A DNA stretch of 64,000 bases from a virus (IMGVR_UViG_3300037312_001491:1-64000), one strand, 5' to 3'. Counted from the stretch's first letter, positions 8,759 to 22,232 are shown. Program-made: numbers and translations. Notes: generated from the sequence alone by a model not told the origin.

Positions 8759-9089
8759 GTTGAAGTTCCTCCCTGCGGACCAGGTTGCGCATCCGCGGGG
8801 GGCGCGTCAAGGGGAATTGCGAGGTCCTCGGCGTGGGTCGCCGGCACCGCGTCGCGCGGGTCGATATCACCCTCGAAGAACATCGCATTGCCCCGGCACT
8901 TCGGACACACGACCGTTATCACGGTTTTGCCGATGCGACCGCCGCGGTACCTCCAGCCTCGTGATGCACCGGCGCGGAGCGCCGCGACCTTCGGCGAGAA
9001 CTGCTTGGGGCAGCGGTCCTCGTCGATCTCGACCTTCATGCGGTCGCCGCAGTCACATAGCAGCCGGAACATCAGGAGGAAGGCCACGG

Positions 9090-9488: not shown

Positions 9489-10102
9489 CCCTCGGCCTTG
9501 TCGGGCTTGTCGGCGTCGCCCGCCTTCTCGGCCGCCGCGGCCTTCGGCTTCTTCGTCTTCTTCGCGCGCAGCTCGGCGACCTCGTCGGAGAGCTTCTTCA
9601 CCTGCTCCTGGAGCGTCTTGCGCTCGGCGAGGAGCTGGTTCAGGCGCTCGTCGCCACCGCCGGCAGCGTCAAGCTGTTCCTGCATCGTGCGCAGGTCGTT
9701 GAGCGCCTCCGTAAGGAGGTTGAGCGCGAACGCGACAGGGTCGGCGTCGGTCTTCTCGTCCGCTAGGCCGAGCGCGCGGATGCCGACCGCGAGGTTGACG
9801 AGCGCGTCCGCGCCGCCATCTGGCAGCGCCACGACGGGCGGGATGCCCGCGGCGGCGACCTCTGCCTCGGACGCGAGCGGCGCCGGGAACTCGTCGACCA
9901 GCTCCACGTCCGCGGCCGTGGCGGTCACGAAGAGACCGTCCGAGCGCAGGATGAGGAACACGAACTCCTTGCCCGACATCTCGGTAGCGACGACGGCGCC
10001 CTCGCAGTCGACGGCCGGCTGGCCGGTCTGCTCGTTGAGGTGGCGCCAGCGGACGCGCGGGCCGGTGAGCACGAGACCCATCGAGATGGTGCCGGCGTTC
10101 AC
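9485..10102 (-). CDS. Hypothetical protein with C-terminal coiled coil and Lys/Ala tail
   Basis: Heptad-like segment LNDLRTMQEQL...LQEQVKKLSDEVAEL. Confidence 0.55.
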   Translation of the reverse strand: MNAGTISMGLVLTGPRVRWRHLNEQTGQPAVDCEGAVVATEMSGKEFVFLILRSDGLFVTATAADVELVDEFPAPLASEAEVAAAGIPPVVALPDGGADALVNLAVGIRALGLADEKTDADPVAFALNLLTEALNDLRTMQEQLDAAGGGDERLNQLLAERKTLQEQVKKLSDEVAELRAKKTKKPKAAAAEKAGDADKPDKAEG

Positions 10103-10368
10103 GAGAGCACCGCCTTGGCGGCGATGATGCGCGCGGCGACGGAGGTGTTCTCGTCGTCGCGGAGCGCGAGTGTGCTAAGGGTGGCCTTGATGTCTTTGAT
10201 CATGTCGAACATCTCCTCGTGCCTGGACTTCCAGCGGTTGGCGTAGCCGAGCAGGGTGACGGCGGCGTCGACCCGGTCGACGGTTGGGAGCTTCTCGTTC
10301 CCGATGGTCGCAAGGAGGAACTCCACGACGGGAAGGTCGGGGTCGGGCTTCGCGGGTTCGTTGTCCAT
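10099..10368 (-). CDS. Hypothetical protein
   Basis: ORF with GC3 bias, overlapping next gene. Confidence 0.5.
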   Translation of the reverse strand: MDNEPAKPDPDLPVVEFLLATIGNEKLPTVDRVDAAVTLLGYANRWKSRHEEMFDMIKDIKATLSTLALRDDENTSVAARIIAAKAVLS

Positions 10369-10388
10369 GTCCCGTAGACGCCTTGGGC

Positions 10389-10417
10389 TTGCGTCGAATT
10401 CCGCCTGGTGCTACGAA
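10389..10417 (+). promoter_or_regulatory. Promoter of tRNA-Leu cluster (leaderless leader ORF follows)
   Basis: TTGCGT-N17-TACGAA then ACAGTC-ATG. Confidence 0.55.
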
Positions 10418-10423
10418 ACAGTC

Positions 10424-10489
10424 ATGCACCGGTTCCGCCACATCGTCGCCCTGCGGCTACTTGTCGCGGCGCAGTTGCGCGCGAACTGA
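10424..10489 (+). CDS. Putative Leu-sensing leader peptide MHRFRHIVALRLLVAAQLRAN
   Basis: Four Leu residues with four different codons (CTG, CTA, CTT, TTG); stop is 7 nt before first tRNA-Leu. Confidence 0.6.
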   Translation: MHRFRHIVALRLLVAAQLRAN

Positions 10490-10496
10490 TCCTCTC

Positions 10497-10571
10497 GCCG
10501 GCGTAGCCCAGGCAGGTAGAGGCAACGGTCCCAAACACCGCCCAGCGCGGGTTCGAGTCCCGCCGCCGGCA
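10497..10571 (+). tRNA. trnL: tRNA-Leu(CAA), short variable loop
   Basis: GCCGGCG/CGCCGGC acceptor, loop CC-CAA-AC, GTTCGAGTC T-loop. Confidence 0.8.
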
Positions 10572-10572
10572 C

Positions 10573-10645
10573 GTCGCGGTAGCCCAATGGCAGAGGCAGC
10601 AGGTTGAGAGCCTGTCCAGTGCGGGTTCGAGTCCCGCCCACGGCA
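10573..10645 (+). tRNA. trnL: tRNA-Leu(GAG), short variable loop
   Basis: Anticodon stem GCAGG/CCTGT, loop TT-GAG-AG, T-arm GCGGG-TTCGAGT-CCCGC. Confidence 0.85.
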
Positions 10646-10649
10646 CGAC

Positions 10650-10723
10650 GCCATCGTAGCGCAATTGGTAGAGGCGCCAGACTCAGGATCTGGTTAGTGC
10701 GGGTTCGAGTCCCGCCGATGGCA
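10650..10723 (+). tRNA. trnL: tRNA-Leu(CAG), short variable loop
   Basis: GCCATCG/CGATGGC acceptor, CCAGA-CTCAGGA-TCTGG. Confidence 0.9.
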
Positions 10724-11117
10724 CGACTAGCCGGGGATGCCCCGGCACTCCCAGCACCACCCGCACCGGTGCTCCGGGCAGCAGTGCAGCTCGCGTCGCG
10801 GGTCGACGACGTTGCAGCGCAGCTCGCGCCGCGCCTCGACGCTCGCGCGGTAGGAGGCGCGTTCGTCGTAGCGAGCGGCCGCCTCGCGGACGATCTGCCC
10901 GATGGTCGGCGGCACGTACTCGATCCACTCGGGCGAGGCGATGGCCGGCTCCGTCTGCTTGTAGAGGGAGCACCAGGTGTAGCCACCGGTGTTGATGCGG
11001 CGGACGTGGGGCTGTGCGTACGGACGGTGAGCGGCCCGGACCAGGCCACAGGCGTCGCAACCGCGTCGCGGGTCGGTGGCCGGCGCGTTGTGCGGGTTCG
11101 TGACCGCGTAATCGTGG

Positions 11118-11453
11118 TCAGGTGCCACGGAGCCCTCCGCCAGTCTCGCTGTTGCACCCTGCGCACGCGGGGCGGATGTTGCCGCGGACGTAGCGCCCGC
11201 CCTTGCAGCCGGGCACGATGCGGTCGACGGTGACGGTCTGCTCGGTGAGCAGTGTCCCGCAGCGGTAGCAGCGGCAGACCGGCACGCCGCCACCGAGAAA
11301 GACGGTGCTGTTGACGTTCGGGTCAACACAGAGGTCGACGTTCGCGCGCCACGCCGTGACCAGCCAGCGCCGCCGCGCCGCGCGGTCGCGCGAATTGCCG
11401 CGGGCGTTGCTGTTGCTCGTGCCACGCGTAGCGGGTTGCGACTGGCCGGTCAT
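11118..11453 (-). CDS. HNH endonuclease-family protein
   Basis: CYRCG...VTVDRIVPGCKGGRYVRGNIRPACAGCNS. Confidence 0.75.
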   Translation of the reverse strand: MTGQSQPATRGTSNSNARGNSRDRAARRRWLVTAWRANVDLCVDPNVNSTVFLGGGVPVCRCYRCGTLLTEQTVTVDRIVPGCKGGRYVRGNIRPACAGCNSETGGGLRGT

Positions 11454-11818
11454 CGGAAGATGCAGGTGGTCGGTTCGACCACGGCCCAGTCGTTGGAGGT
11501 GGCGTCGAGGACGATGGGGAACAGCAGCTCCAGGAGCAGGACGTCCCCGATGACGTAGCGGGTCTGGACGGTCGCGTGCACGTAGCATGTGCCGATGACG
11601 CTGTCGCCAACGCGCGCCGTGATGGCGTGGTCGTGACGCCCCTCGACGTAGAGGCGGTGGTGGTCGGCGCGGCCGACCGGAACGTCGTCAACGGTGAACT
11701 CCGCCGACATAGGCACTGGCACGGTGATGGGCACGTCGGTGGCGTCGTTGAACATGCGGCCGCAGGCCGGCAGAGCACCGGCAGCGATGAGGACGAGAGC
11801 GAGCAGGGCGGTCTTCAC
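11450..11818 (-). CDS. Putative lipoprotein (PEGA-like beta fold possible)
   Basis: GTG start, KTALLALVLIAAGALPAC lipobox, AEFTVDDVPVG. Confidence 0.55.
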   Translation of the reverse strand: MKTALLALVLIAAGALPACGRMFNDATDVPITVPVPMSAEFTVDDVPVGRADHHRLYVEGRHDHAITARVGDSVIGTCYVHATVQTRYVIGDVLLLELLFPIVLDATSNDWAVVEPTTCIFR

Positions 11819-12021
11819 GGGAACTCCTTCATGAACTTTTCGACGCGGTCCATTGCGGCCGCGGTCTTGTGTTTCCACTCGAAAGCGAGACGCGAGTCGG
11901 TGATGCGCGCCAGGTCGCCGGCCAGCGTCGCCGGGAAGGCCGCGAGCGACCACCCGGCCAGGGTCTTGAGGAGCTTGTCGCGCCGCTCGTGGAACTCGGC
12001 GTGCGGGTCGGACAGACCCAT
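11815..12021 (-). CDS. Hypothetical protein
   Basis: ORF packed in operon. Confidence 0.4.
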   Translation of the reverse strand: MGLSDPHAEFHERRDKLLKTLAGWSLAAFPATLAGDLARITDSRLAFEWKHKTAAAMDRVEKFMKEFP

Positions 12022-12044
12022 CTCGGAGGCGTAGTGACCCACGG

Positions 12045-12977
12045 CTAGTCGTCTCCGTAGGGGTCCCAGCCGACGACCGCGGCGTCCGCGGCCTGCTCGG
12101 CGTAGTGCGTCTCTTCGACCTTCGCGTTGAGGCGTGACTTCCACTCCTGCTGAGCGACCGCCCACTGCAACGGGGTGAGCGCCAGGTCGCCGACCTTGAT
12201 GTTGAGCACCGCACCGCGGTGGCCGCTGCCCTCCTCGCGGAGGTGCTCGTGCTGCATGGCGCGTTCGTAGCGCTCGAAGCACTGCGCGCGCGTGAGACCG
12301 TCGATGAGGTCGGGCTTGGGCGCCTTGTAGCCGCACGACACCGGCGCGGTCAGCGGCGCCTTGACGTCGGCCTCCGGGTAGTCGGTGAACAGCGCGTCGA
12401 GGAACAGCCAGCAGTAGCCGGTGCCGAACGGGCCGTCGGTCGGGCCCTGGGTGAGCGAGTCCTTCGCGGTCGCCGGGTGGACCTCGTTGATGAACGCCTG
12501 GAGTGGGATCCAGCGCGCACGCGAGCGGCACACGCCGCGCGGCACAGTCAGCGAGTCGACGACGCACGCGATGTGGCCCTCGTACTCGGTCACGTGCAGG
12601 ACCTTGACCGGGCAGATGTCGTCGAGGCGGACCCAGGTCAGCGGGCCGTTCTCTTCACCTATCCCCTTGGGTAGATCTTCGCCGGTGTCGCCGTCGAGGA
12701 AGGAGTACGGGCGGACCAAGAGGTTGTCGCTGCGCCCACTGAACAGGAACGAGTGCTCGACGTTGGCGGACACGTCCTTGGTGTTGACGATCGCGAACAG
12801 CCGGCCGTCGCGTTCGCGGCGGCCGATACACTTGACGGGAATCATGGTGGTCTCCTGGGGTGGGAGGAAGCAGCGGCAGTTCGGGGTGGGTGGCAGCATG
12901 GCGCGTAGCTCGCGGCGCCACTCCCTGCGAGCGGCGATCCAGTCGGCCGGGGACATCAGGTCCCCTTGAGCCACCAC
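12045..12977 (-). CDS. Hypothetical protein with a motif repeated at N- and C-terminus
   Basis: GDLMSPADWIAARREWRRELRA vs GDLALTPLQWAVAQQEWKSRLNA. Confidence 0.6.
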   Translation of the reverse strand: MVAQGDLMSPADWIAARREWRRELRAMLPPTPNCRCFLPPQETTMIPVKCIGRRERDGRLFAIVNTKDVSANVEHSFLFSGRSDNLLVRPYSFLDGDTGEDLPKGIGEENGPLTWVRLDDICPVKVLHVTEYEGHIACVVDSLTVPRGVCRSRARWIPLQAFINEVHPATAKDSLTQGPTDGPFGTGYCWLFLDALFTDYPEADVKAPLTAPVSCGYKAPKPDLIDGLTRAQCFERYERAMQHEHLREEGSGHRGAVLNIKVGDLALTPLQWAVAQQEWKSRLNAKVEETHYAEQAADAAVVGWDPYGDD

Positions 12978-13612
12978 GGCGTGACGCGCACAAACCTCGT
13001 CACGGTGTGCGCATCGTCGCCGCTGGTGACAAGACCAATTAGGTCACCGCCCATGTCGTAGACGGGCGAGCCGGAGTCCCCCTTGTACGTGGGGGCGTCG
13101 ACATACGGGCCGTGGAGGTCGCCGCAGGCGCGACCGCGCCGGGTCAGCACGCACGCTCGGTCGCCGATGCGGGCGAGCCTGGGCGGCGCCACACCGAGGC
13201 CGAAGCGATCGGCGTCGCCGATCAGCTCCAGGCGGGCGAGGTCGGTACCGTCGCCGAACATCTGCGCGTCGATGGTGACCTCGACCAGCCACTGCTTGCC
13301 GTTGGGCAGCGTGATGACGGCGGTCGGGATGTCCGGGCAGCGCACGGCGTGCGCGACCGTGAGCACGTGGCGCTCCGAGACAACCACGCCCGTGGCGACG
13401 CGGTGAGGGTACCACTCGATGTCTGAATCGAACTGGTGCGGGTCATCCGGCTCGCCGGTCTTGAACGGGGCCTCGGTCACGCAGTCGACGTCGACGCGGA
13501 CGATGGTGCCGTCCTGCGCGCCCGCCGCGCGCGGCGCGGGGTCCACGTGATGGAGGGGGAACAGGGAGCAGCCAGCCAGGCAGAGCAGGAGGAGGTGCAG
13601 CTTGCGGAGCAT
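12956..13612 (-). CDS. Trypsin-like serine protease, lipoprotein signal
   Basis: LLLLCLAGC lipobox; catalytic triad motifs VLTVAHAV, DLARL, GDSGSPV. Confidence 0.85.
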   Translation of the reverse strand: MLRKLHLLLLCLAGCSLFPLHHVDPAPRAAGAQDGTIVRVDVDCVTEAPFKTGEPDDPHQFDSDIEWYPHRVATGVVVSERHVLTVAHAVRCPDIPTAVITLPNGKQWLVEVTIDAQMFGDGTDLARLELIGDADRFGLGVAPPRLARIGDRACVLTRRGRACGDLHGPYVDAPTYKGDSGSPVYDMGGDLIGLVTSGDDAHTVTRFVRVTPWWLKGT

Positions 13613-13650
13613 GCCCAAGGGACGCCGCGTGGCGGCAATTTTGTTCCGCG

Positions 13651-13686
13651 AAAAAAGAAAAAACCCCGCCAAATCGGCGGGGTCTT
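13651..13686 (-). terminator. Rho-independent terminator of the rsr-yrl unit
   Basis: Minus strand AGACCCCGCC-GATTT-GGCGGGGTTTTTTCTTTTTT. Confidence 0.85.
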
Positions 13687-13695
13687 TAGAGAATA

Positions 13696-13827
13696 GACGG
13701 ATGAAAATTGAGCCAGGACTTTTGTACTTGCGCTCTATCCGCTGAGCTACGAGGCCCTTGCGATCCCCGGAGGGAGTTGAACCCTCGACCTCAAGTTCCG
13801 ATGGTGATCCTGATTCGACGACCCGCC
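13696..13827 (-). ncRNA. yrlA: YrlA-like Y RNA with tRNA-like domain
   Basis: Terminal stem GGCGGGT/ATCCGTC; T-arm GAGGG-TTCAACT-CCCTC precedes a GCAA-capped acceptor-like stem and D-arm TAGCTCAGCGGATAGAGC, the permuted order described for YrlA; adjacent to Ro gene. Confidence 0.8.
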
Positions 13828-13832
13828 AAAAA

Positions 13833-13915
13833 GTTGGTGGACAAAATGTGGCCTGGGGTGCCCTTTCGGGCGGTCATTTAGCAAATGGTAACCCAGAATC
13901 CGTCCGGCCCACCGT
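13833..13915 (-). ncRNA. yrlB: YrlB-like Y RNA
   Basis: 5' GGTGGGCCGG pairs with 3' TTGTCCACC leaving a bulged C, like the Ro-binding helix (GGUCCGA/UUGAC); lies directly after the Ro stop codon. Confidence 0.65.
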
Positions 13916-13944
13916 GTACAGATACTACGCGCCAGGCGGGCGCG

Positions 13945-15597
13945 CTATTCCTCGTCCTCGTTCTTTTCGACCGGCGCCGCCTCACCACGGACGAAATCCG
14001 AGATGATCGCAGGGAGTGCGGCGTCGAAGCCGACGACGTCCATCATGCCGGAGTCGCCGGGGTCGGCGATGGTTTGCGCGGTCGCGACCATGCCAACGAC
14101 AACCGAGCGCGCGTCGACGCCCGAACGCCGGCGGTAGTCCTGGAGCGCGATGTGCGGATGGCGCGCGCCGCGGAAGGTCTCGTTGTCCGTGTAGACGACG
14201 AAGCCGGCCGGCTTGGCGCCCGTCTGGATGGCCCACTCGAACGGCAGCGAGCAGTCCGTCGCGCCGTACGGGATGCGGCCCATGACGTGGCACGCCTCGG
14301 CGAGGCGCATCGACTTGTTGATCGGCACCTCGACGAAGTGGTGCGAGAACCCCATCAGGTGGTAGTTCGGCTCCGCGTGCGCCGTGACGAGCGCCATCGC
14401 CGCCGCGGCCTCGCGGCAGCTGAGCAGGCCGTTCGCGGTGCTGTGCGAGGTCATCGAGCCCGACACGTCGAGCGCGAGCAGCATCGGCTTGCCGACCGGC
14501 ACGACGTTGCCGAACGAGCCGTAGAACGCGGCATCGAGCGCGTCGTTGACGACCTGCACTGGCGTCCAGGACAGCTCGCCCTTGAGGCCGTGGCCGCGCC
14601 CGTACATCTTCGCCGCGATGAGCACGGCCATCGGGTGGACGCGCGAGCGGCGCAACGCCTCGCCATCGGCGAGACGGGCAGCGACGTACATCGACGCGTC
14701 CGACAGCGGCGCGATGAGGCCGACCGCGGTCATCTTGGCGAGGTTGCGGATCAGTGCGGTCGGCGGCATGCCGTACTTGCCGGCGCGCAGCAGCGCGTCC
14801 CACACCTCGACGTTGTTGAGGTGCTGCGTCGGGATGGCCTCGCGCGGCAGACCGTAGTCGCGGATGAGTGAGATGAGGCGCTTGACGTCGCACGTCTTGG
14901 CCTCCTCGAACGCCTGAATCGTCGCCGGCAGGACGAGCCCGTCGGCGTAGCTCGTGCGCGCCCACCGGTAGATCGCGCCGTGGTCGGGCGTCGCCGGATG
15001 CGGGTGCGCGAGCTTGATGAGATCGCGCGCGGCCCAGCCGTCGCGCTGCTGGTACTTCACCAGCTGGTACGCGAGGTCGGAGGCCGACTTCTCGTTGAAC
15101 CACTTCGCGACCGCGCGGCGCATGCCGCGGCCCCAGCCGTGTCCCATCGACTCGACGAACGCGACGAAGTGGTAGAGGTGCGTGCCGGTGCGGCAGACCT
15201 TGGGCAGCGCCTCGTAGGCGAGCTGGCGCGTGTTCTCGTGGTGGTGCCGCGCCTCGGGGTCCTCGACGCCGACGTTGGCGGCGATGGCGAGCGCGAAGAT
15301 GGCGGGGTTGTTCTTGGGCGCGCGGCCCGACTCCGAAATCTCGACGATGCGGCGGACCAGGCGCGCGCCGTCCGCGAGCGCGAGGCGCAACACGACGAGC
15401 GCGTTCTCGCGCGAGAGCTTGCGCTCGTCGACGTAGAACGTGCCGCCCTCGCTGCCGAGGATCAGGAAGCGGTCCAGGCGGGACCAGTCGTCGACGACGA
15501 AGCTGAATCCTCCTGCGTGGTTGGGTGCCTGGCTGGGGTGCGCCTGCTCGGTCTGCGGGACGGGTCCCAGGGCGTTCTTCAAGTGCTCGATCGACAT
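13945..15597 (-). CDS. rsr: Ro60/Rsr RNA-binding protein (TROVE + vWA)
   Basis: NHAGGFSF.VDDWSRLDRFLILGSEGGTFY, GRAPK, VCRTGTHLYHF, GWGRGMRRAV, LVKYQQRDGW, ALDVSGSM, VYTDNET. Confidence 0.95.
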   Translation of the reverse strand: MSIEHLKNALGPVPQTEQAHPSQAPNHAGGFSFVVDDWSRLDRFLILGSEGGTFYVDERKLSRENALVVLRLALADGARLVRRIVEISESGRAPKNNPAIFALAIAANVGVEDPEARHHHENTRQLAYEALPKVCRTGTHLYHFVAFVESMGHGWGRGMRRAVAKWFNEKSASDLAYQLVKYQQRDGWAARDLIKLAHPHPATPDHGAIYRWARTSYADGLVLPATIQAFEEAKTCDVKRLISLIRDYGLPREAIPTQHLNNVEVWDALLRAGKYGMPPTALIRNLAKMTAVGLIAPLSDASMYVAARLADGEALRRSRVHPMAVLIAAKMYGRGHGLKGELSWTPVQVVNDALDAAFYGSFGNVVPVGKPMLLALDVSGSMTSHSTANGLLSCREAAAAMALVTAHAEPNYHLMGFSHHFVEVPINKSMRLAEACHVMGRIPYGATDCSLPFEWAIQTGAKPAGFVVYTDNETFRGARHPHIALQDYRRRSGVDARSVVVGMVATAQTIADPGDSGMMDVVGFDAALPAIISDFVRGEAAPVEKNEDEE

Positions 15598-15786
15598 TCG
15601 GCCCTCCTCGCGAGTCTGTGATTGTCCAGGAGACGCGCGGTGCGCGCGAAAAATTCCGCGTGATTGTGTCGCCTCCGCCCGGCCGGAACCGCCAGGAATA
15701 CGTAAATTTACTAATTGACGATGTCCTTTCAGCCATGTAGCTATGGGCCACGCGCTTGCAGTGCGTTAACCTCGAAGGAGAGAGTC

Positions 15787-16392
15787 ATGGTGAACATCAA
15801 CGCGAATACGAGTTTGGAAGGTGTCGAGGCTACCATCACCACGCTCCAGGAGCAGATCGACGAGTTGAAGTCTCGTCTCCGCCTGGCGCGTGGAACGGAC
15901 GACCTCACCAAAGCCGCGGCCGATGCCGCACGCAACGCAGCCGCGGTCACGCCGCTGCCTCGGCCGCTGACGCTGGAGGAACAGATCGAGGCGCACCTGC
16001 GCCGACAGATCATGACCACCACGCAGCTCTCCAAGGCGCTCGGCGTGCCGACGGACCAGGTGCTCACCTCCATCAAGAGGATGCGCTCGAAGGTCCACAA
16101 CCTCGGCACGACCGACTGCGCGCGCTGGTCCTGGCGCATCGGCAGCGACGCCTCGCCGGCCGAGCTGCGCGCGCTGGTCGAGCGCCTCATCTCGTTCATG
16201 CCGCTGGAGTTTCGCGAGATCGTCACGGCCACCGGCGCTCGCGACGGCCTGGTGCAGGGTCACCTGGTGGAGCTGCGGAAGGTGAAGAACGTCGTCGACC
16301 TCGGCGCCGGTTCGTCGTCGAAGGCGCGGTGGTTCCTCATGCCCGAGAACGCTCGGGACGCCAGGCTGCCTCGTCGCGGCAAGACGGAATAG
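15787..16392 (+). CDS. Putative DNA-binding protein: N-terminal coiled coil plus two winged-helix-like repeats
   Basis: MTTTQLSKALGVPTDQVLTSIKRM...W and LEFREIVTATGARDGLVQGHLVEL...W; GAAGGAG RBS; TTGACG promoter at ~15715. Confidence 0.6.
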   Translation: MVNINANTSLEGVEATITTLQEQIDELKSRLRLARGTDDLTKAAADAARNAAAVTPLPRPLTLEEQIEAHLRRQIMTTTQLSKALGVPTDQVLTSIKRMRSKVHNLGTTDCARWSWRIGSDASPAELRALVERLISFMPLEFREIVTATGARDGLVQGHLVELRKVKNVVDLGAGSSSKARWFLMPENARDARLPRRGKTE

Positions 16393-16393
16393 C

Positions 16394-16422
16394 TTGACGA
16401 CCTCGCGCGTAGAAGGTATCAA
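16394..16422 (+). promoter_or_regulatory. Promoter of main tRNA array (leaderless leader ORF follows)
   Basis: TTGACG-N17-TATCAA then CCAGTC-ATG. Confidence 0.65.
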
Positions 16423-16428
16423 CCAGTC

Positions 16429-16557
16429 ATGATGACCAGGGCATCCACCGAAACGTTCGCGAAGCGCGCCAGCGCTGCGACGGTGTGGTGCGTCCGCGGT
16501 CACGAGTACCAGGGCACCATCAACCCGTCGGATGACGCGGAGGCCCTCGATAGCTGA
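16429..16557 (+). CDS. Putative attenuator leader peptide MMTRASTETFAKRASAATVWCVRGHEYQGTINPSDDAEALDS
   Basis: 42 codons, all 20 amino acids, 31 distinct codons; its 3' end forms one strand of an antiterminator. Confidence 0.7.
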   Translation: MMTRASTETFAKRASAATVWCVRGHEYQGTINPSDDAEALDS

Positions 16558-16582
16558 CCAGGCGTAATAGCCGAAAGCCGTC

Positions 16583-16620
16583 GAGGGCGCCCCGGGAAAC
16601 CGCGGCGCCCTTTTCGTTTT
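16583..16620 (+). terminator. Intrinsic terminator (attenuator) upstream of tRNA array
   Basis: GAGGGCGCC-C-CGG-GAAA-CCG-C-GGCGCCC followed by TTTTCGTTTT. Confidence 0.85.
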
Positions 16621-16621
16621 C

Positions 16622-16709
16622 GGGAGCGCAGACCGGCGTGGCTCCGGGCCTGGCCGTAACCCAGGCTGCCTTCGGGCACAGGATGGTTCGATTCCGTCCG
16701 CTCCCACCA
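16622..16709 (+). tRNA. trnY: tRNA-Tyr(GTA), long variable arm
   Basis: GGGAGCG/CGCTCCC, CCTGG-CCGTAAC-CCAGG, CCA end. Confidence 0.8.
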
Positions 16710-16787
16710 CCCCCCTCTCACCCAGGGGACTGACAACTGAATAGCTGACGACGACGAGGTCGGGCCCGCGTGGGCTCGGCCATTCAC

Positions 16788-16861
16788 TCGGGGATCGTTC
16801 AATGGTAGGACGTCGGTTTCTGGAACCGGCTATCCAGGTTCGAGTCCTGGCCCCCGATCCA
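16788..16861 (+). tRNA. trnQ: tRNA-Gln(CTG)
   Basis: Loop TT-CTG-GA, T-arm CCAGG-TTCGAGT-CCTGG, CCA. Confidence 0.9.
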
Positions 16862-16862
16862 T

Positions 16863-16935
16863 GTCCCTCGCGTATGGCTGGTGCGTACGCCTGGTTGAAG
16901 CCCAGGAGGCTGAGGTTCGATTCCTCGGGGGGACA
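16863..16935 (+). tRNA. trnF: tRNA-Phe(GAA)
   Basis: CCTGG-TTGAAGC-CCAGG. Confidence 0.85.
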
Positions 16936-16940
16936 CGAGA

Positions 16941-17009
16941 GGGGAGGCGTGGGTCCGAATCCCACCGTCCGGCCTGGTGCCGGGCGAAGTGCTGCGGTGG
17001 CACGCCCCC
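16941..17009 (+). ncRNA. Circularly permuted tRNA-like element 1
   Basis: Closing stem, T-arm GTGGG-TCCGAAT-CCCAC, closed acceptor-like stem CGTCCGGC/GCCGGGCG, AA, D-like arm GTGC-TGCGGTG-GCAC. Confidence 0.6.
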
Positions 17010-17015
17010 GTTTTT

Positions 17016-17090
17016 GGGCCGCTAGCTCCAATGCAGAGCAACGGGTTCTTACCCCGCTGGTTCTGGGTTCAAGTCCCAGGCGACCCACCA
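17016..17090 (+). tRNA. trnK: tRNA-Lys(CTT)
   Basis: Loop TT-CTT-AC, CCA. Confidence 0.85.
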
Positions 17091-17100
17091 CGCGTTCGTC

Positions 17101-17175
17101 GAGTCCGCAGCTCTCAGGTAGAGCACGCGCCTTTTAAGCGAGGAGGTGCAGGTTCGACTCCTGCCGGACTCACCA
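17101..17175 (+). tRNA. trnK: tRNA-Lys(TTT)
   Basis: GAGTCCG/CGGACTC, loop CT-TTT-AA, CCA. Confidence 0.9.
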
Positions 17176-17282
17176 TAAGCCGACAGCGGCACCTGGTTGC
17201 CGGGCGCGCGATGACGATCGGCGCGCGAACGATGAAGCGCGGACCCAAGTCCGTCAGCCGAGTTGAACCAGGAGATCTTTCT

Positions 17283-17355
17283 GCGGCTGTGCCCAGGGTG
17301 GGCAGCGAGAGTGCCACTCTTGCCTCGGTGGGTTCGATCCCCATCGGCCGCTCCA
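17283..17355 (+). tRNA. trnG: tRNA-Gly(GCC)
   Basis: CGAGA-GTGCCAC-TCTTG, U73, CCA; short D-loop. Confidence 0.75.
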
Positions 17356-17356
17356 T

Positions 17357-17432
17357 TGTAGCCGAGGGTTCGATTCCCTCCCAAGGGAGCTGCGCAAGCA
17401 GCGCGACCGGGGCGTTAGGGTACGGGGCTACA
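17357..17432 (+). ncRNA. Circularly permuted tRNA-like element 2
   Basis: TGTAGCC/GGCTACA closing stem, T-arm GAGGG-TTCGATT-CCCTC, GCAA-capped stem GCTGC/GCAGC, D-like arm CGT-TAGGGT-ACG. Confidence 0.55.
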
Positions 17433-17436
17433 GCTT

Positions 17437-17511
17437 GCGGGTGTCGCGCTCAAGGTGAGCCAGCGGTCTTCCACACCGCCCAGGCGGGTCCGATTCCCGT
17501 CGCCCGCTCCA
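17437..17511 (+). tRNA. trnG: tRNA-Gly(TCC)
   Basis: GCGGT-CTTCCAC-ACCGC, U73, CCA. Confidence 0.85.
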
Positions 17512-17512
17512 C

Positions 17513-17586
17513 GCCGATGTAGCTCCGAGGTGGAGCAGTGGTCCCGTAAACCACCGGGCTGGGTTCGACTCCCAGCGTCGGCTCCA
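17513..17586 (+). tRNA. trnT: tRNA-Thr(CGT)
   Basis: GTGGT-CCCGTAA-ACCAC, CCA. Confidence 0.85.
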
Positions 17587-17588
17587 GT

Positions 17589-17661
17589 GCCCTCCAGGCG
17601 TCCGTGGGAACGCGCCGCACTTGTAATGCGGATGTGGCCGGTTCGACTCCGGCGAAGGGCT
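17589..17661 (+). tRNA. trnT: tRNA-Thr(TGT)
   Basis: CCGCA-CTTGTAA-TGCGG. Confidence 0.85.
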
Positions 17662-17666
17662 CCGAT

Positions 17667-17743
17667 GTATCCCTCGTATCTCTGGTGAGTACGGCGGCCT
17701 GTTAAGCCGAGAGAGCTGGGTTCGATTCCCAGGGGATACGCCA
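17667..17743 (+). tRNA. trnN: tRNA-Asn(GTT)
   Basis: GTATCCC/GGGATAC, loop CT-GTT-AA, G73, CCA. Confidence 0.85.
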
Positions 17744-17745
17744 AC

Positions 17746-17820
17746 GGCCCATGAGTCAGCTGGTGTGGACGGCAGCCTCTCAAGCTGTCGAGCCGGGATC
17801 GTAACCCGGATGGGTCACCA
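17746..17820 (+). tRNA. trnE: tRNA-Glu(CTC)
   Basis: GCAGC-CTCTCAA-GCTGT; atypical T-loop ATCGTAA; CCA. Confidence 0.85.
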
Positions 17821-17827
17821 AATTTTT

Positions 17828-17904
17828 GCCTCCGCAGCTCGACTGGATCGAGCACACGGCTACGGACCGTGGGGTTGCAGGTTCGACTCCTGCCGGAGGC
17901 GCCA
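17828..17904 (+). tRNA. trnR: tRNA-Arg(ACG)
   Basis: CACGG-CTACGGA-CCGTG, CCA. Confidence 0.9.
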
Positions 17905-17905
17905 T

Positions 17906-17980
17906 GGGATGCAGCGCGCGGGCCGCGCCGCCGGTCTCCAAAGCCGTGCAGAGAGGGTTCGATTCCCTCGCATCTCGCCA
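17906..17980 (+). tRNA. trnW: tRNA-Trp(CCA)
   Basis: Loop CT-CCA-AA, G73, CCA. Confidence 0.8.
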
Positions 17981-17981
17981 T

Positions 17982-18054
17982 CGCAGCGACCCAGGGCGCC
18001 GGAGCGGCCCATAACCGCCACCGCGTAGGGGTTCGAGTCCCCCCGCTGCGACCA
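17982..18054 (+). tRNA. tRNA(CAT), elongator Met or Ile2
   Basis: CGCAGCG/CGCTGCG, GCGG-CCCATAA-CCGC, CCA. Confidence 0.7.
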
Positions 18055-18055
18055 C

Positions 18056-18136
18056 GCGGGCTTGAGGTGGCGCCGCCGACGAGGTCTAGAACGACTCGGT
18101 GGGCGTTCGCCGGTGCGAATCCGGCGACCCGCTCCA
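18056..18136 (+). tRNA. Atypical tRNA-like gene, anticodon ambiguous (hairpin contains TCTAGAA)
   Basis: Acceptor GCGGGCT/GACCCGC plus TCCA and T-arm GCCGG-TGCGAAT-CCGGC present; D arm unclear, irregular extended anticodon arm. Confidence 0.5.
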
Positions 18137-18142
18137 ATTCAC

Positions 18143-18217
18143 AGAGGGATAGCCTACTGGGCAGGCGCTTGTTTCGGGAACAAGATCAGGCGGGTTCGAT
18201 TCCCGTTCCCTCTACCA
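18143..18217 (+). tRNA. trnP: tRNA-Pro(CGG)
   Basis: AGAGGGA/TCCCTCT, CTTGT-TTCGGGA-ACAAG, CCA. Confidence 0.85.
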
Positions 18218-18218
18218 C

Positions 18219-18294
18219 GCGGGGCAGCTCACCTGGCGGTGGGATCACTCCTACAAAATGACCGCGCAGAGTCCGATTCTCTGGCCCCGCACCA
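18219..18294 (+). tRNA. trnV: tRNA-Val(TAC)
   Basis: GCGGGGC/GCCCCGC, loop CC-TAC-AA, CCA. Confidence 0.8.
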
Positions 18295-18381
18295 TCCATG
18301 AACGCAGGCCCGCACAACTCCCCCGGACGCACGAGCGTCGCGAAAGTGGAGGCCATGCCGGGAAGGGCGCTGTGTTCACAT

Positions 18382-18455
18382 CCGTTGCTAGCTCAAAGCA
18401 GAGCGTCCGCTCGATAAGCGGAGGGTTGCAGGTGCGAGTCCTGCGCGACGGACCA
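18382..18455 (+). tRNA. trnI: tRNA-Ile(GAT)
   Basis: TCCGC-TCGATAA-GCGGA, CCA. Confidence 0.85.
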
Positions 18456-18536
18456 TGCGGGGAAGCGGAGCAGGTGCATGCCGCGGGGGGCTCATAACCC
18501 CCATTAGCCGGGTTCGAGTCCCGTGTCCCGCTACCA
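18456..18536 (+). tRNA. trnM: tRNA-fMet(CAT), initiator-like
   Basis: GGGGG-CTCATAA-CCCCC (consecutive G-C pairs), unpaired first acceptor position, ACCA end. Confidence 0.75.
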
Positions 18537-18600
18537 ACGCGAGCGACCCGCGCCCAGGTCGTGGCTAGCGCTCGCGCCGAGCGCCGACAACAGACGTCAT

Positions 18601-18676
18601 GGTGCCTATAGCTGTAGTGGTCGCACGGCGGATTGTGTCTCCGCAAGGGCGGGTTCGATTCCCGCTAGGTACCCCA
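18601..18676 (+). tRNA. trnH: tRNA-His(GTG)
   Basis: G-1:C73 pair, GCGGA-TTGTGTC-TCCGC, CCA. Confidence 0.85.
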
Positions 18677-18703
18677 CACACGTGCTAATCCAGGAGGAGA
18701 GTC

Positions 18704-19255
18704 ATGCAGGCCGAGAGCTTCGCGACGAACGAGCAGACCCTAGTCCTCGACCCTGGCATGCGCCCGGTCGAGGTCGTGCACTGGACGCGCGCCGTCGCGC
18801 TCTGGTTCCAGGACAAGGCGGAGGTCATCGCCGAGTACGATGGCTTCGCGCGCTCGTCCTCGCTGGTGATCAAGATCCCGGCTGTGGTTCGCCTCCTGCA
18901 TGCGTTCAAGCGCGACCGGAAGCCGGTCAAGTTCTCGCGCGTGAACATTTACGCCCGCGACGGCTACCGCTGCCAGTATTGCGGCGGCAAGTTCACGATG
19001 GGTGAGCTGACCTACGACCACGTTGTCCCCCGCTCGCGTGGGGGAAAGACGAGCTGGGAGAACATCGTGTCCGCGTGTCACGCATGCAACCGCCGCAAGG
19101 CGTGCCGCACGCCGGAGCAGGCGGGAATGAAGCTCCGCAAGGTGCCCGTGCAGCCGCAGGCCGTGCCGGTGCTCGTGATCCCGCTGTCGAGGAAGACCGT
19201 CCCCGACGCGTGGCGCGACTACCTGTACTGGACCGGCGAACTGGACCGGGACTGA
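18704..19255 (+). CDS. HNH endonuclease (tRNA-array associated type)
   Basis: FSRVNIYARDGYRCQYCG...TYDHVVPRSRGGKTSWENIVSACHACNRRK. Confidence 0.95.
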   Translation: MQAESFATNEQTLVLDPGMRPVEVVHWTRAVALWFQDKAEVIAEYDGFARSSSLVIKIPAVVRLLHAFKRDRKPVKFSRVNIYARDGYRCQYCGGKFTMGELTYDHVVPRSRGGKTSWENIVSACHACNRRKACRTPEQAGMKLRKVPVQPQAVPVLVIPLSRKTVPDAWRDYLYWTGELDRD

Positions 19256-19362
19256 TCGAAAAGCCGTAGCGCGTCCGCAAAGCGCGTGAAGGCACGGCGC
19301 ACGAGGGGCAACCCGACCGCAGAAGCGGAGCCGCAACGGCCCTCCAGTGGGCCTCGTGTTTT

Positions 19363-19436
19363 GGTCCTGATTTCACCGGGTGGTGATGCGCCGCTGTCTA
19401 CGGCGTCGAGGAGGGGTTCGAGTCCCCCCAGGACCG
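19363..19436 (+). tRNA. trnD: tRNA-Asp(GTC)
   Basis: GGTCCTG/CAGGACC, CGCCG-CTGTCTA-CGGCG, G73. Confidence 0.85.
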
Positions 19437-19441
19437 CGAAT

Positions 19442-19513
19442 GGGCGCGTAGCTCAACGGGTGAGCGCTCCGCTGGCTGCGGAGAGGTTGCGGGTTCGAGT
19501 CCCGCCGTGTCCA
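19442..19513 (+). tRNA. trnA: tRNA-Ala(GGC)
   Basis: G3:U70 pair, CTCCG-CTGGCTG-CGGAG. Confidence 0.9.
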
Positions 19514-19519
19514 CGAAAC

Positions 19520-19594
19520 GGGGCCGTCATTCTAACGGGAAGATTCCTGGTCCGCACCCAGGCGATGTCGGTTCGATTCCGACCGGTTCCACCA
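19520..19594 (+). tRNA. trnA: tRNA-Ala(CGC)
   Basis: G3:U70 pair, CCTGG-TCCGCAC-CCAGG, CCA. Confidence 0.85.
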
Positions 19595-19595
19595 C

Positions 19596-19670
19596 GCCGA
19601 TGCAGCTCCTCTGGCGGAGCACTCGCCCGGTACGCGAGAGGGTCGGGTTCGAGTCCCGACGTCGGCTCCA
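19596..19670 (+). tRNA. trnT: tRNA-Thr(GGT)
   Basis: CTCGC-CCGGTAC-GCGAG, CCA. Confidence 0.85.
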
Positions 19671-19677
19671 GTTTCGA

Positions 19678-19752
19678 TCGGGGTTCGTCTAATCGGTAGG
19701 ACGGCGGACTTTGGATCCGCCTATGAGGGTCCGAGTCCCTCGCCCCGAACCA
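19678..19752 (+). tRNA. trnQ: tRNA-Gln(TTG)
   Basis: GCGGA-CTTTGGA-TCCGC, CCA. Confidence 0.9.
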
Positions 19753-19753
19753 C

Positions 19754-19826
19754 GCGCCGGTGGTCGAATGGAAAGGCACGGAGCTGCAACCTCCGCACAT
19801 CGCGAGTTCGATTCTCGCCCGGCGCT
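19754..19826 (+). tRNA. trnC: tRNA-Cys(GCA)
   Basis: CGGAG-CTGCAAC-CTCCG, U73. Confidence 0.9.
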
Positions 19827-20227
19827 CAAAGTAGTCCGTGATCAAATTCCCAATGGTGGTTCGGACACAAGAAGCGAATGTTCGAGCGCGCGTTCACCTC
19901 GACGAGTGGTGTGCTGTCGGGGAACGTGCTCAGCGCGACAACGTGACAGACCTCGACGTGCTTTGAGTAACCGCAGACCTCACATGATGCGCGCAGTCGC
20001 TCTGTGCGGTGCGTGGTGCGCGCTCGTTCTCGCACGTACGCGTGAAGCCAGGACGGATGACGGCCACGAAGGGACAAGAGGCGTCGCACGTCTCCGATTG
20101 TGATCACCCGGATGCTGTCGAGGCGGCGCTCTCGGCAATCAGAGCAGAACTCGGAACGATACTTGTTCTTCGCGATCTGCCAGGTCGCGCCACAGTTCTT
20201 GCAGCTTCGGATATGGGGCTGCCGCAT
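19826..20227 (-). CDS. HNH endonuclease-family protein, antisense inside tRNA array
   Basis: CKNC..FCSDC N-terminus; CEVCGYSKHVEVCHV...SNIRFLCPNHHWEFDH. Confidence 0.8.
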   Translation of the reverse strand: MRQPHIRSCKNCGATWQIAKNKYRSEFCSDCRERRLDSIRVITIGDVRRLLSLRGRHPSWLHAYVRERARTTHRTERLRASCEVCGYSKHVEVCHVVALSTFPDSTPLVEVNARSNIRFLCPNHHWEFDHGLL

Positions 20228-20267
20228 CTCGAAAGTCTTACGCCGCGAGATGCACCCGAACTTCCTT

Positions 20268-20344
20268 GTTCCCGTCGCCTCGCAGGATGAGGTACCGCAC
20301 TCCTAATGCGGATAGTGCAGGTTCGAGTCCTGCCGGGGACACCA
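20268..20344 (+). tRNA. trnR: tRNA-Arg(CCT)
   Basis: CCGCA-CTCCTAA-TGCGG, CCA. Confidence 0.9.
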
Positions 20345-20345
20345 C

Positions 20346-20417
20346 GGTTCCGTGACAGGATGTCGACCCGACGATCCGAACGTCGGCGGCCGGGTTCGAG
20401 TCCCGGCGGAATCACCA
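20346..20417 (+). tRNA. trnR: tRNA-Arg(CCG), 6-bp anticodon stem and small D arm
   Basis: GGTTCCG/CGGAATC, CCGACG-ATCCGAA-CGTCGG, CCA. Confidence 0.7.
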
Positions 20418-20419
20418 AC

Positions 20420-20497
20420 GGCCGCGCGGCAAACTGCTGGTGTGGTAGCCGGCTTTTCACCCCGGTGCTTCGGGTTCGATTCCCGCCGCGGTCACCA
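20420..20497 (+). tRNA. trnE: tRNA-Glu(TTC)
   Basis: Loop TT-TTC-AC, GGCCGCG/CGCGGTC, CCA. Confidence 0.75.
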
Positions 20498-20510
20498 TCG
20501 TCGTCAGCTT

Positions 20511-20598
20511 GGCGTCGGAGAGGGCAACAGGTGCCCTACCGGTCTCGAAAACCGGGTGCCCCGAAAGGGGCCGGGTTCAACCCCTAACGGCGCCGCCA
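20511..20598 (+). tRNA. trnS: tRNA-Ser(CGA), long variable arm
   Basis: CCGGT-CTCGAAA-ACCGG, GCCCC-GAAA-GGGGC arm, G73, CCA. Confidence 0.8.
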
Positions 20599-20599
20599 T

Positions 20600-20683
20600 G
20601 GAAGGACAGCCGGTGCAGGTGCCCGGAGCCGTTTGCTAAACGGATGTGCCCGCAAGGGTCGGGTTCGAGTCCCCGTTCTTCCG
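20600..20683 (+). tRNA. trnS: tRNA-Ser(GCT), long variable arm
   Basis: GGAAGGA/TTCTTCC, loop TT-GCT-AA, GCCC-GCAA-GGGT arm, G73. Confidence 0.8.
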
Positions 20684-21916
20684 CTACTTCTTCGGTGGGT
20701 GGTCCGTCGTCGCCGGCAGCGCCGCCCAGCGTGACAACGCGATCTCTTCGGGCGTGACGGCGCCGGCAGCCATCGCCAGTGCGTCGGCGCGCGCGAGGTC
20801 GAGGCGCGCCTGCGCCAGCTCGCCGGCCTTCGCGCTCGTCTCCCATGTGCCGCCAAGGGGGCGGTCCCACTCGGGTAGTGGGATCGCGATGCAGTAGAAG
20901 TGGCCGCGCACCGGCACGTTGATCAGCAGGCGCGTCCCGCCGAAGTGCACGCGCACATCGATGGCGGCCTCGCTCGCGGTGTCCTTGTCGAACTGCTCGC
21001 CCACGAGCTTGTGCGCCAGCTCCATCGCCAGCCGGTCGTAGTCGATGGACGGCGCGCGGCTCGCGACGGCGCGTTCGACGCAGCGGCCGATGCGGCGCAG
21101 CTTCTCCTGCGGCGTCTCGACGAACACGTCGACGGCGATGCCGGCGGGCCGGCAGGGCTCGATGGCTGCACGCACGCGGCGCTCCCAGCGCCAGTCGACG
21201 TTGTCGTCACCCTCGGTGATGACGATGCGGACGTCGCCGGGCTGCGGCTCCTTGACCTCGACCTCGCGCACACCGGGGACCATCTTCGCCATCACGGCGA
21301 GCTGGGTGCGCGTGCAGTTGCGGTAGAACAGCGCCAGGTCTTCGTGGTCGTTGTGGTAGCCGTTCGGTGTCTTGCCGAGCAGGATGAACTCGGGGATGCC
21401 GTAGATGCCGGCAATCTTCCGGGTGAAGTCGTTCATCAACTCAGGAAGCCCCGCGAGAGGCGACGAGCCCCAGAGGCCGAGCCGGTCCAGAAGCTGCGGT
21501 ACCGTCGGTCCGTGGTCGACCGTGAGCAACGCGGCGTCGCGCGCGCTCGCGTGGACGTTGATGGCGATCTTCACCTCGGCGTCCGGCGGCACGTCGTGGT
21601 CACAGTCGACCCGCAGGACCGTCTTGCCCTCGGCGTCGATGAACAGCATGTGACGGACGGCGGCCGACTCGGCGGCCCGGAACTTGACGACGTCCACGAT
21701 GCCGTCCCAGGGCACACGCCGCGCGTCGCGGCCGTCTCGCGTGCGCAGGACGATGGCGACCACGCGCCGGCGGAGCTGGCACGGGCGGCACGCGCAGTTC
21801 ACGACGTGACCGGGCTCACCCCGGTGACGCGGGGGGACCGCGCCGTCGCAGCCGAGCGCGCACTGGACGTACGCGCCGATGACGGGGATGCCGGGGTGGC
21901 CGCAGGGGGCGTTCAC
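20684..21916 (-). CDS. Chimeric protein containing a portal-like segment and a baseplate-J-like segment
   Basis: PLAGLPELMNDFTRKIAGIYGIPEFILLGKTPNG aligns with this phage's portal; MVPGVREVEV...PCRPAGIAVDV resembles baseplate J C-terminus. Confidence 0.6.
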   Translation of the reverse strand: MNAPCGHPGIPVIGAYVQCALGCDGAVPPRHRGEPGHVVNCACRPCQLRRRVVAIVLRTRDGRDARRVPWDGIVDVVKFRAAESAAVRHMLFIDAEGKTVLRVDCDHDVPPDAEVKIAINVHASARDAALLTVDHGPTVPQLLDRLGLWGSSPLAGLPELMNDFTRKIAGIYGIPEFILLGKTPNGYHNDHEDLALFYRNCTRTQLAVMAKMVPGVREVEVKEPQPGDVRIVITEGDDNVDWRWERRVRAAIEPCRPAGIAVDVFVETPQEKLRRIGRCVERAVASRAPSIDYDRLAMELAHKLVGEQFDKDTASEAAIDVRVHFGGTRLLINVPVRGHFYCIAIPLPEWDRPLGGTWETSAKAGELAQARLDLARADALAMAAGAVTPEEIALSRWAALPATTDHPPKK

Positions 21917-22232
21917 GCGGAGGTGACGCGCCGAGCGGCCGCGGGAATTCCTGCCAGAGCAGTTGCTCCATCAGGGCCCGCGCGCGCTTGCTCGGGGCCT
22001 TCGTCAGGAAGCCGCGCGCGACCCCATTCTCGTACGGGGGCGGCTTGCGGAACTGTGCGGCGGTCGGGTCGAGCACGTGCGGCGCGATGCCGTCGGACCC
22101 GCTGTCGAGCACGAGGTACCAGTGGACGTCGCCCTCGTGTCGGACGGTGTGCGGCGTGTAGCCGGCGGCCTTGCCACCGAGCAGGTGGTAGAGCGCCTCG
22201 CAGGTGACGTAGCAGTTGCCGCGGCGCCTCAT
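21816..22232 (-). CDS. Conserved phage protein (GNCYVTCEALYHLLGG...GFLTKAPSKRA)
   Basis: Recognisable motif set CYV.CEALYH, HWYL, LDPTAAQF, GFLT.PSKRA. Confidence 0.6.
   Translation of the reverse strand: MRRRGNCYVTCEALYHLLGGKAAGYTPHTVRHEGDVHWYLVLDSGSDGIAPHVLDPTAAQFRKPPPYENGVARGFLTKAPSKRARALMEQLLWQEFPRPLGASPPRERPLRPPRHPRHRRVRPVRARLRRRGPPASPG

Follow-up and report, generated by a model that had tools for sequence, protein, structure and literature searches.

The window analysed here, a stretch of 64,000 nucleotides, belongs to a virus record of 88 kb that is rated complete (68% G+C), and its genes include those for a myovirus-type head, sheath, and baseplate. Downstream of a gene for a 201-aa protein, which ends at 16392, a promoter-like site is found, composed of the -35 hexamer TTGACG, a 17-nt spacer, and the -10 hexamer TATCAA. 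After a gap of 6 nt it is followed by the ATG (16429) of a 42-codon ORF, called the leader ORF below (Table 1). An earlier note, made from the sequence alone, had described this arrangement and had ascribed to the ORF all 20 amino acids, 31 distinct codons, and single occurrences of Trp, Cys, His, Tyr, Gln, Ile, Asn, Pro, Phe, and Lys. All of this is borne out by the sequence, and Leu is likewise single, which brings the single-occurrence residues to eleven types; Asp is first seen at codon 35. As had also been stated, the only Leu codon, CTC at 16546–16548, is located within a strand that can pair with downstream RNA (strand 2, see below). In a strict promoter consensus scan of the window the leader promoter is unlisted, its -10 hexamer being without the final T. 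A pattern of the form TTGAC-N18-TAnnnT has three further occurrences in the window against 0.21 expected.

The leader ORF has the composition of a coding sequence: its G+C content at third codon positions (GC3) is 0.86, against 0.53–0.57 at positions 1 and 2, and it resembles long phage genes in this respect. Pfam gives no family match for the leader peptide or for the 201-aa upstream protein. The chance of finding 20 out of 20 types in 42 residues, which the earlier note had proposed to compute, is 0.0048 for independent draws at the phage composition and 0.0022 for sliding windows over real phage proteins. Indeed, the leader is the sole ORF with all 20 types among the 241 ORFs of 30–60 aa in the window. 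The complete set in this single ORF is suggestive, being rare but noticed post hoc, and the weight rests on the relatives.

At its 3′ end, the leader ORF runs into a pair of predicted alternative structures. The minimum-free-energy structure of the window leader contains a helix of 16543–16551 and 16553–16555 with 16576–16578 and 16580–16588 (z = -2.78 against shuffles), and the pairing of 16543–16555 at the ORF end with 16576–16588, proposed earlier, thus reappears as the most stable fold. In this fold just a shortened form of the terminator hairpin is left. The downstream strand of the helix (strand 3) had been taken to be the 5′ arm of a strong intrinsic terminator at 16583–16620. The overlap does exist, but it covers just 4 nt (16585–16588) and no whole arm; the strong hairpin is present as well, with its limits corrected to a stem at 16585–16610 and a T-tract at 16611–16621. 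An intrinsic terminator lies between the leader and the tRNA genes that it is proposed to regulate, and its T-tract stands so close to the first of these, tRNA-Tyr, that no promoter would fit in between. A strict terminator consensus scan of the window leaves this hairpin unlisted because of its mismatch. An Rfam scan of 9000–22000 at E ≤ 1 gave no T-box match and no family for the leader element, on which the sole match is a sub-threshold sRNA (24.9 bits against a cut-off of 39). Apart from the main helices, the nearly invariant Trp-Cys-Val codons at 16486–16494 are complementary to the terminator 3′ arm at 16604–16610 (8/8 aligned leaders); this complementarity, which is without covariation, may be a further alternative pairing.

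The array behind the terminator comprises 25 tRNA genes according to ARAGORN, not the 31 counted in the earlier note, and Rfam adds three weak tRNA-like matches. The latter are sub-threshold, are located at 20359–20593 (+) between tRNA-Arg(CCT) and tRNA-Ser(GCT), and are uncalled by ARAGORN. The array is interrupted by an HNH endonuclease ORF at 18704–19255 (+); L003, L004, L033, and three further contigs have comparable HNH ORFs a few kb past the leader. The statement that the array has no canonical tRNA-Leu is true of the array itself, but three tRNA-Leu genes are located 6 kb upstream. The leader has Val codons, yet the window array has no tRNA-Val. Between the tRNA-Leu trio and the leader lies an orthologue of Ro60 at 13945–15597 (-), with TROVE and vWA domains (E = 1e-45 to 1e-56), adjoined by a weak match to a YrlA-like Y RNA at 13709–13814 (-; 30.4 bits against a cut-off of 69); this Ro60/Y RNA pair is kept in L003, L006, and one ENA contig. 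Elsewhere in the window, a portal ORF at 35565–38309 (+) encodes 914 aa, of which the C-terminal residues 787–914 match an ADP-ribosyltransferase toxin PHROG (E = 4e-9).

Table 1. Positions of the leader, its predicted switch, the tRNA genes, and related modules (window coordinates unless a locus is named).
Feature	Position	Strand	Description
Companion element	10389–10489	+	Promoter-like TTGCGT, 17 nt, TACGAA, 6 nt; 21-codon ORF at 10424–10489
Three tRNA-Leu genes (CAA, GAG, CAG)	10497–10724	+	Outside the putatively gated array; ARAGORN
Promoter-like site	16394–16422	+	-35 at 16394–16399, 17-nt spacer, -10 at 16417–16422 (sequence)
Leader ORF	16429–16557	+	42 codons and TGA; two ATGs at the predicted 5′ end; 20 amino-acid types
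Strand 2, predicted antiterminator 5′ strand	16543–16555	+	Spans the last four codons and the first stop-codon base; folding
Strand 3, predicted antiterminator 3′ strand	16576–16588	+	Last 4 nt (16585–16588) also form the terminator stem base
Terminator hairpin	16585–16610	+	10 pairs, one C·C mismatch, GAAA loop
Terminator T-tract	16611–16621	+	Ends 1 nt before tRNA-Tyr
tRNA array, putatively gated	16622–20684	+	25 ARAGORN tRNAs for 18 amino acids; no Leu, no Val
Leu ORF homologues	L006 661–726; L031 10488–10601; L033 1115–1174; L024 314–370	L031 -	
Second leader family	L025 1025–1184; L028 1682–1841; L029 2521–2676; L013	L029 -	Promoter-like site, 28-codon ORF, 16 amino-acid types
Third module instance	L018 5377–5497; L019 5474–5594	L018 -	Promoter-like site, 16-codon ORF, helix, terminator

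Relatives of the leader were collected from peptide and upstream-protein searches, contig look-ups, one IMG/VR match, and a scan with a DNA pattern. When 1.84 billion representative proteins were searched with a profile, 14 peptides of 35–45 aa were obtained at E ≤ 1e-3, and peptide-level HMM matches reach E = 1e-10 to 1e-17. Ten further loci come with DNA (L002, L006, L007, L008, L009, L010, which equals G001 and L031, L024, L033, L034, and L153); with the window they make 11 loci from at least 9 lineages, and all peptides together number 18. Neither the region nor the upstream gene has an isolate relative in megablast, blastn, and tblastn searches against 50,697 phage records, and a search for isolate relatives with the head protease gave distant matches only. 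Used as a locus query, the 201-aa protein retrieved none, either as a single sequence in IMG/VR or as an alignment in the metagenome collection. Among the metagenome DNA-pattern matches, 11 out of 18 were rejected as chance matches inside long ORFs, and a looser DNA pattern on IMG/VR produced at least 118 chance matches and no new member.

The earlier note had looked to relatives for the same design, and this design is conserved in all ten related metagenomic loci. The spacing of -35, 17 nt, and -10 is kept in the 11 loci despite differing spacer sequences (18 nt in the case of L033), the gap from -10 to ATG is 4–9 nt, mostly 6–7, and tandem ATGs, two or three in number, are frequent at the leader start. 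This promoter-to-ATG geometry fits a leaderless mRNA, and on that ground the leader is probably translated from a leaderless start. The ORF has 36–44 codons in the 11 loci and 35–45 across the 18 peptides, with an in-frame deletion of 3 nt in L002. GC3 is 0.79–1.00 in every lineage; pooled over 9 lineages, GC3 is 0.89, GC1 0.56, and GC2 0.50. The stop codon falls 9–19 nt past the first base of strand 2 in 11/11 loci. This signature points to a short translated leader between the promoter and the tRNA genes. At the other end of the element, nine of the 11 loci have a called tRNA-Tyr directly at the T-tract; in L007 (880–950) and L010 (3781–3850), its place is taken by a degenerate tRNA-Tyr-like element. 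The latter element has a GTA anticodon context, is uncalled by ARAGORN, and may be a degenerate or atypical tRNA. The neighbouring 201-aa protein is 51–58% identical in distant loci, while leader peptides are 34–57% identical, and the neighbour is the better kept one where both are comparable. In L024 and L033, the 201-aa gene is absent and an intact leader is found instead 3′ of tRNA genes.

The peptides vary in sequence, and the set of amino acids that they contain stays nearly complete. All 20 types are present in 16 of the 18 aligned peptides, the exceptions being L009 without Phe and P0014 without Leu; high amino-acid diversity combined with poor sequence conservation is what the earlier note had predicted for relatives. 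Trp, His, Tyr, Lys, Ile, and Phe occupy different alignment columns among divergent lineages. For example, Trp has shifted from a position beside Cys to one beside Asn-Pro in L010 and P0009. Other features of the peptide are fixed, namely the Cys, Asn-Pro, and Ala-Leu motifs, and a peptide-level role may be considered for them. Since the family consensus peptide itself contains all 20 types, inheritance had to be separated from selection. In the test, residues of a column that are common to another lineage were kept and private ones were redrawn from the phage proteome. It was applied to 14 lineages, the window being left out because it had been chosen for its complete set. Over these lineages 13.8 missing types are expected and 2 are observed (P = 6e-9), and an alternative background drawn from the peptides themselves gives the same picture. 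Moreover, Trp, Cys, and Lys occur exactly once each in 15/15 peptides. As judged from these sequence comparisons, completeness of the amino-acid set is under selection, through relocation of residues and not by inheritance alone.

A tuning of leader codons to the anticodons of the array was considered and rejected: 81% of the leader codons are read by array tRNAs, compared with 70% for phage genes. The leader codons would be cognate to the array in an unusual form, with Val as an exception and with an undistinctive choice among synonymous codons.

Both helices of the predicted switch vary in a compensatory way, as had been predicted in the earlier note for the stems 2:3 and 3:4 of relatives. 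Because L033, L034, and L010 were placed wrongly when the 3′ region was aligned with MAFFT, a covariance-model realignment was used, which still forces L033 and L034. In this model-fitted alignment of 17 matches, of a kind that leans towards the model, 95.5% of the terminator cells are paired and 7 out of 10 pairs have compensatory changes. For the antiterminator with its inner hairpin, counted in the same manner, 94.7% are paired and 8 out of 14 pairs have double changes, a level that none of 500 shuffles attains; each of the pairing and covariation values of the helices is reached by at most 1 of 500 shuffles. Individual cases illustrate these changes. In the terminator, a C-G pair is replaced by U-A in L002 and L009, and pairs are inserted or swapped in L008, L010, L033, and L034. 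In the antiterminator of L009, a G-C pair has been inverted to C-G, which costs the peptide an exchange of Asp for His; in other loci, a U·G pair becomes U-A or C-G. In L034, the 4 nt common to both helices have changed together with both partners, a three-way covariation that is found in this one locus. L033 has lost the usual strand 2, and a new complementary stretch is found 6 nt upstream on other codons.

Folding with ribosome constraints, proposed in the earlier note, gave the two expected states. With a ribosome mask at the stop codon, the full terminator forms in 11/11 loci; with the upstream RNA masked, the antiterminator helix is the minimum-energy fold, also in 11/11 loci. In the latter state the outer terminator pairs have P ≤ 0.41 in 9/11 loci, and in the remaining two, L008 and L024, only the outermost pair is lost. 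The models thus predict an alternative helix that would exclude the terminator through the 4-nt overlap and would be blocked by a ribosome at the leader end. An equilibrium model in which the ribosome is stalled codon by codon switches sharply at about five codons ahead of strand 2. For every amino acid present except Leu, this modelled switch is clean in four of nine lineages (window, L009, L034, and L153); four lineages give a partial switch and L007 a poor one. RNAalifold on 8 leaders found no conserved covarying 1:2 or pause hairpin in the 5′ half; accordingly, an untranslated leader would default to read-through, unlike the case of trp.

Leu is treated differently from the other amino acids. 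Upstream of the last seven residues of the leader peptides, 5 Leu are seen against 36.6 expected, a 7-fold depletion (p = 3e-11), and no other residue is comparably depleted there. The regular single Leu codon is part of strand 2. Five loci extend far enough upstream (window, L006, G001, L024, and L033), and in each of them the tRNA-Leu trio precedes the leader; in L024 and L033 it stands directly before the leader promoter. Behind the leader, tRNA-Leu is missing from the arrays of the window, G001, and L033 and from the partial arrays. The earlier remark on Leu can thus be generalised: the amino acid is depleted in the upstream part of the relatives' leaders, and the tRNA-Leu genes are always found upstream of the switch.

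The tRNA-Leu trio has a short ORF of its own. In the window, this Leu ORF contains four Leu codons of four kinds and ends 7 nt before the trio; among the homologues, too, the Leu ORFs end 5–10 nt before tRNA-Leu. A promoter-like site, which in the window has the geometry of the leader promoter, precedes the Leu ORF in the window, L006, and G001, and in L033 and L024 the ORF follows tRNA-Met. No terminator is found 3′ of the Leu ORF in the window and homologous loci. A hairpin in the Leu ORF carries CTT/CTA codons, which are within the loop in the window, L006, and L033. When the Leu ORFs are pooled, 18 of 95 residues are Leu (p = 2e-4), and 13 of these 18 codons are the rare CTT, CTA, and TTG, which make up 14% of the Leu codons of phage genes (p = 4e-8). 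The Leu ORF may regulate the tRNA-Leu trio and, if it does, would be a companion to the leader.

Other modules of a similar kind exist in further loci. The leaders of the L025 group were found by DNA pattern; their helix and terminator are of the kind described above (covariance-model E about 1e-6), and about 450 nt past the leader begins an array of 20 tRNAs, Leu included. The idea that the peptide of this group mirrors its array was rejected: Thr, Gly, and Ser occur in the peptide without matching tRNAs, and tRNAs for Asn, Val, Trp, and Tyr occur in the array without matching codons. The module of L018 and L019 has no tRNA within 1.5 kb, and the first of its downstream ORFs to match a Pfam family is a polysaccharide deacetylase. 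In L032 (464–616; G001 5463–5613), two adjacent tRNA-Ile calls with the unusual anticodon AAT are found at a large distance from the related phage's main array.

Taken together, we favour, with a probability of about 0.7, the reading that the leader is a leaderless, ribosome-mediated transcription attenuator of the tRNA array that samples 19 amino acids. This is the interpretation put forward in the earlier note, and every test by sequence comparison, i.e., geometry, frame, stop placement, helices, terminator, and amino-acid set, turned out as it predicts. Where transcription starts, that the ORF is translated, which way the switch works, and what triggers it physiologically are all inferred from sequence, so that the steps are worded conditionally. 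Transcription would start at or next to the ATG to give a leaderless mRNA, and a ribosome would translate the leader of 35–45 codons, which offers at least one codon per amino acid with Leu confined to the pairing strand. A ribosome that reaches the stop codon would cover strand 2, leave the base of the terminator free, and allow the hairpin with its U-tract to form; completion of the leader would thus end transcription 1 nt before tRNA-Tyr. If the ribosome stalls earlier, at a distance of more than about five codons from strand 2, this strand would pair with strand 3, the resulting helix would remove the bottom pairs of the terminator, and polymerase would enter the array. About 30 upstream codons would act as stall positions that permit read-through, while a stall at the Leu codon in strand 2 would favour termination. 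Whichever of 19 aminoacyl-tRNAs runs short, or if translation is blocked in general, the element would report it, and the answer would be the phage tRNA set. The tRNA-Leu genes would be kept outside, behind the separate ORF with Leu codons.

Alternatively, the same RNA switch may be a sensor of general translation status, by which ribosome supply, initiation, or ribosome toxins are read out without sampling of single tRNAs, and whose terminated RNA or peptide might act in trans. Ribosome-free RNA forms the helix with the terminator weakened, no 1:2 hairpin was found that would restore termination on untranslated RNA, and the codon choice is untuned to the tRNAs of the array. However, the compensatory relocation that keeps all 20 types, the single Trp, Cys, and Lys in 15/15 peptides, and the avoidance of Leu together with tRNA-Leu genes outside the array are left unexplained by such a sensor, and we regard it as unlikely. 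Somewhat less probable still is an ordinary small protein gene with its promoter and terminator, in which the helix stabilises the mRNA 3′ end, the tRNA genes are served by constant leak-through, and the complete set is incidental. Small genes with a terminator are common, this ORF is coding-like and is called by gene callers, and the positions of Cys and Asn-Pro are fixed; on the other hand, the peptides are just 34–57% identical with the neighbour protein better kept where compared, and residues relocate yet leave the set complete at P = 6e-9. Such a gene would also not account for a stop codon tied to strand 2, for the common 4 nt of L034 that covary with both partners, or for the position of the terminator, in every locus right next to the first tRNA, and its product has no Pfam match.

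A non-coding element may be imagined as well: the hairpins would serve the processing or stability of the pre-tRNA transcript, or would terminate the 201-aa gene, and the frame would be open by chance in a GC-rich genome. GC-rich DNA is indeed rich in chance ORFs (241 of 30–60 aa in the window), and the upstream gene ending at 16392 needs a terminator. Yet GC3 periodicity is found in all lineages, frame, length, and ATG position are conserved with an indel that stays in frame, and the peptide HMM matches reach E = 1e-10 to 1e-17; besides, the leaders of L024 and L033 are intact behind tRNA-Leu genes where no 201-aa gene exists. We therefore hold this explanation to be very improbable. All three explanations are less likely than attenuation by a translated leader.

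If attenuation is combined with the findings on Leu, a two-part decoding sensor can be proposed, a broader scheme towards which we lean only slightly. The leader for 19 amino acids would gate the array by attenuation, a second leader with rare Leu codons would head the tRNA-Leu trio, and loss of nearly any host tRNA, by starvation or a tRNA-cleaving defence, would switch on the matching phage tRNAs; selection would act on the completeness of the codon set and not on the peptide sequence. An anticodon nuclease or abortive infection is conceivable as the trigger. The purpose and regulation of large phage tRNA sets are an open question, and little is known about the control of arrays. Ideas on such sets include codon compensation and escape from tRNA-cleaving defences (PMC10264068; PMC11464382). 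If the proposal is true, tRNA supply would be driven by demand, and a testable link would exist from tRNA depletion to phage tRNA expression. Furthermore, the element is compact, with about 230 nt, and could be put to use as a natural reporter for global decoding stress.

In the literature searched, neither an attenuator of the leader-peptide type that controls tRNA genes nor a leader with the full set of amino acids was found, in agreement with the earlier note, which knew of no described all-amino-acid attenuator for tRNA arrays. T-box riboswitches are similar to the phage leader in that tRNA charging is coupled to terminator read-through before genes for translation supply. They differ in kind, since one uncharged tRNA is bound directly through a specifier codon and the T-box sequence and no translation is involved, whereas the phage leader carries an ORF with a coding signature and has no T-box match in Rfam. 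A parallel may also be seen in mycobacterial polycysteine ORFs, leaderless short ORFs that are cysteine-responsive attenuators (10.1101/834739). They head a polycistronic transcript, and translation that is slowed when a charged tRNA is lacking sets downstream expression, as would be the case with the phage leader. The polycysteine ORFs have consecutive Cys codons, sense one amino acid, and precede cysteine-related genes; in contrast, the phage leader has one Cys codon (15/15 peptides), tRNA targets, and an evident terminator switch.

Leader-peptide attenuators of amino-acid operons are represented by trpL, hisL, leuL, thrL, pheL, and the multivalent leader of ilvGMEDA. For these operon attenuators, modelling (PMC1183508) and actinobacterial examples (PMC1262725) have been published. 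Like them, the phage element has a short leader with the signature of translation, a terminator just before its targets, and a competing helix into which part of the terminator is drawn; according to the folding models, a ribosome at the stop codon would occlude this helix, and the codons would be cognate to what the operon supplies. Unlike them, its targets are tRNAs and not biosynthetic enzymes, and it has no codon runs, with roughly one codon each for 19–20 amino acids, mostly single. The phage leader differs also in being probably leaderless and phage-borne, in its 4-nt terminator overlap, and in that no 1:2 hairpin was found. Attenuation would thereby be extended in three ways: to RNA genes as targets, to a sensor of nearly all amino acids, and to a leader selected for its composition and not its sequence.
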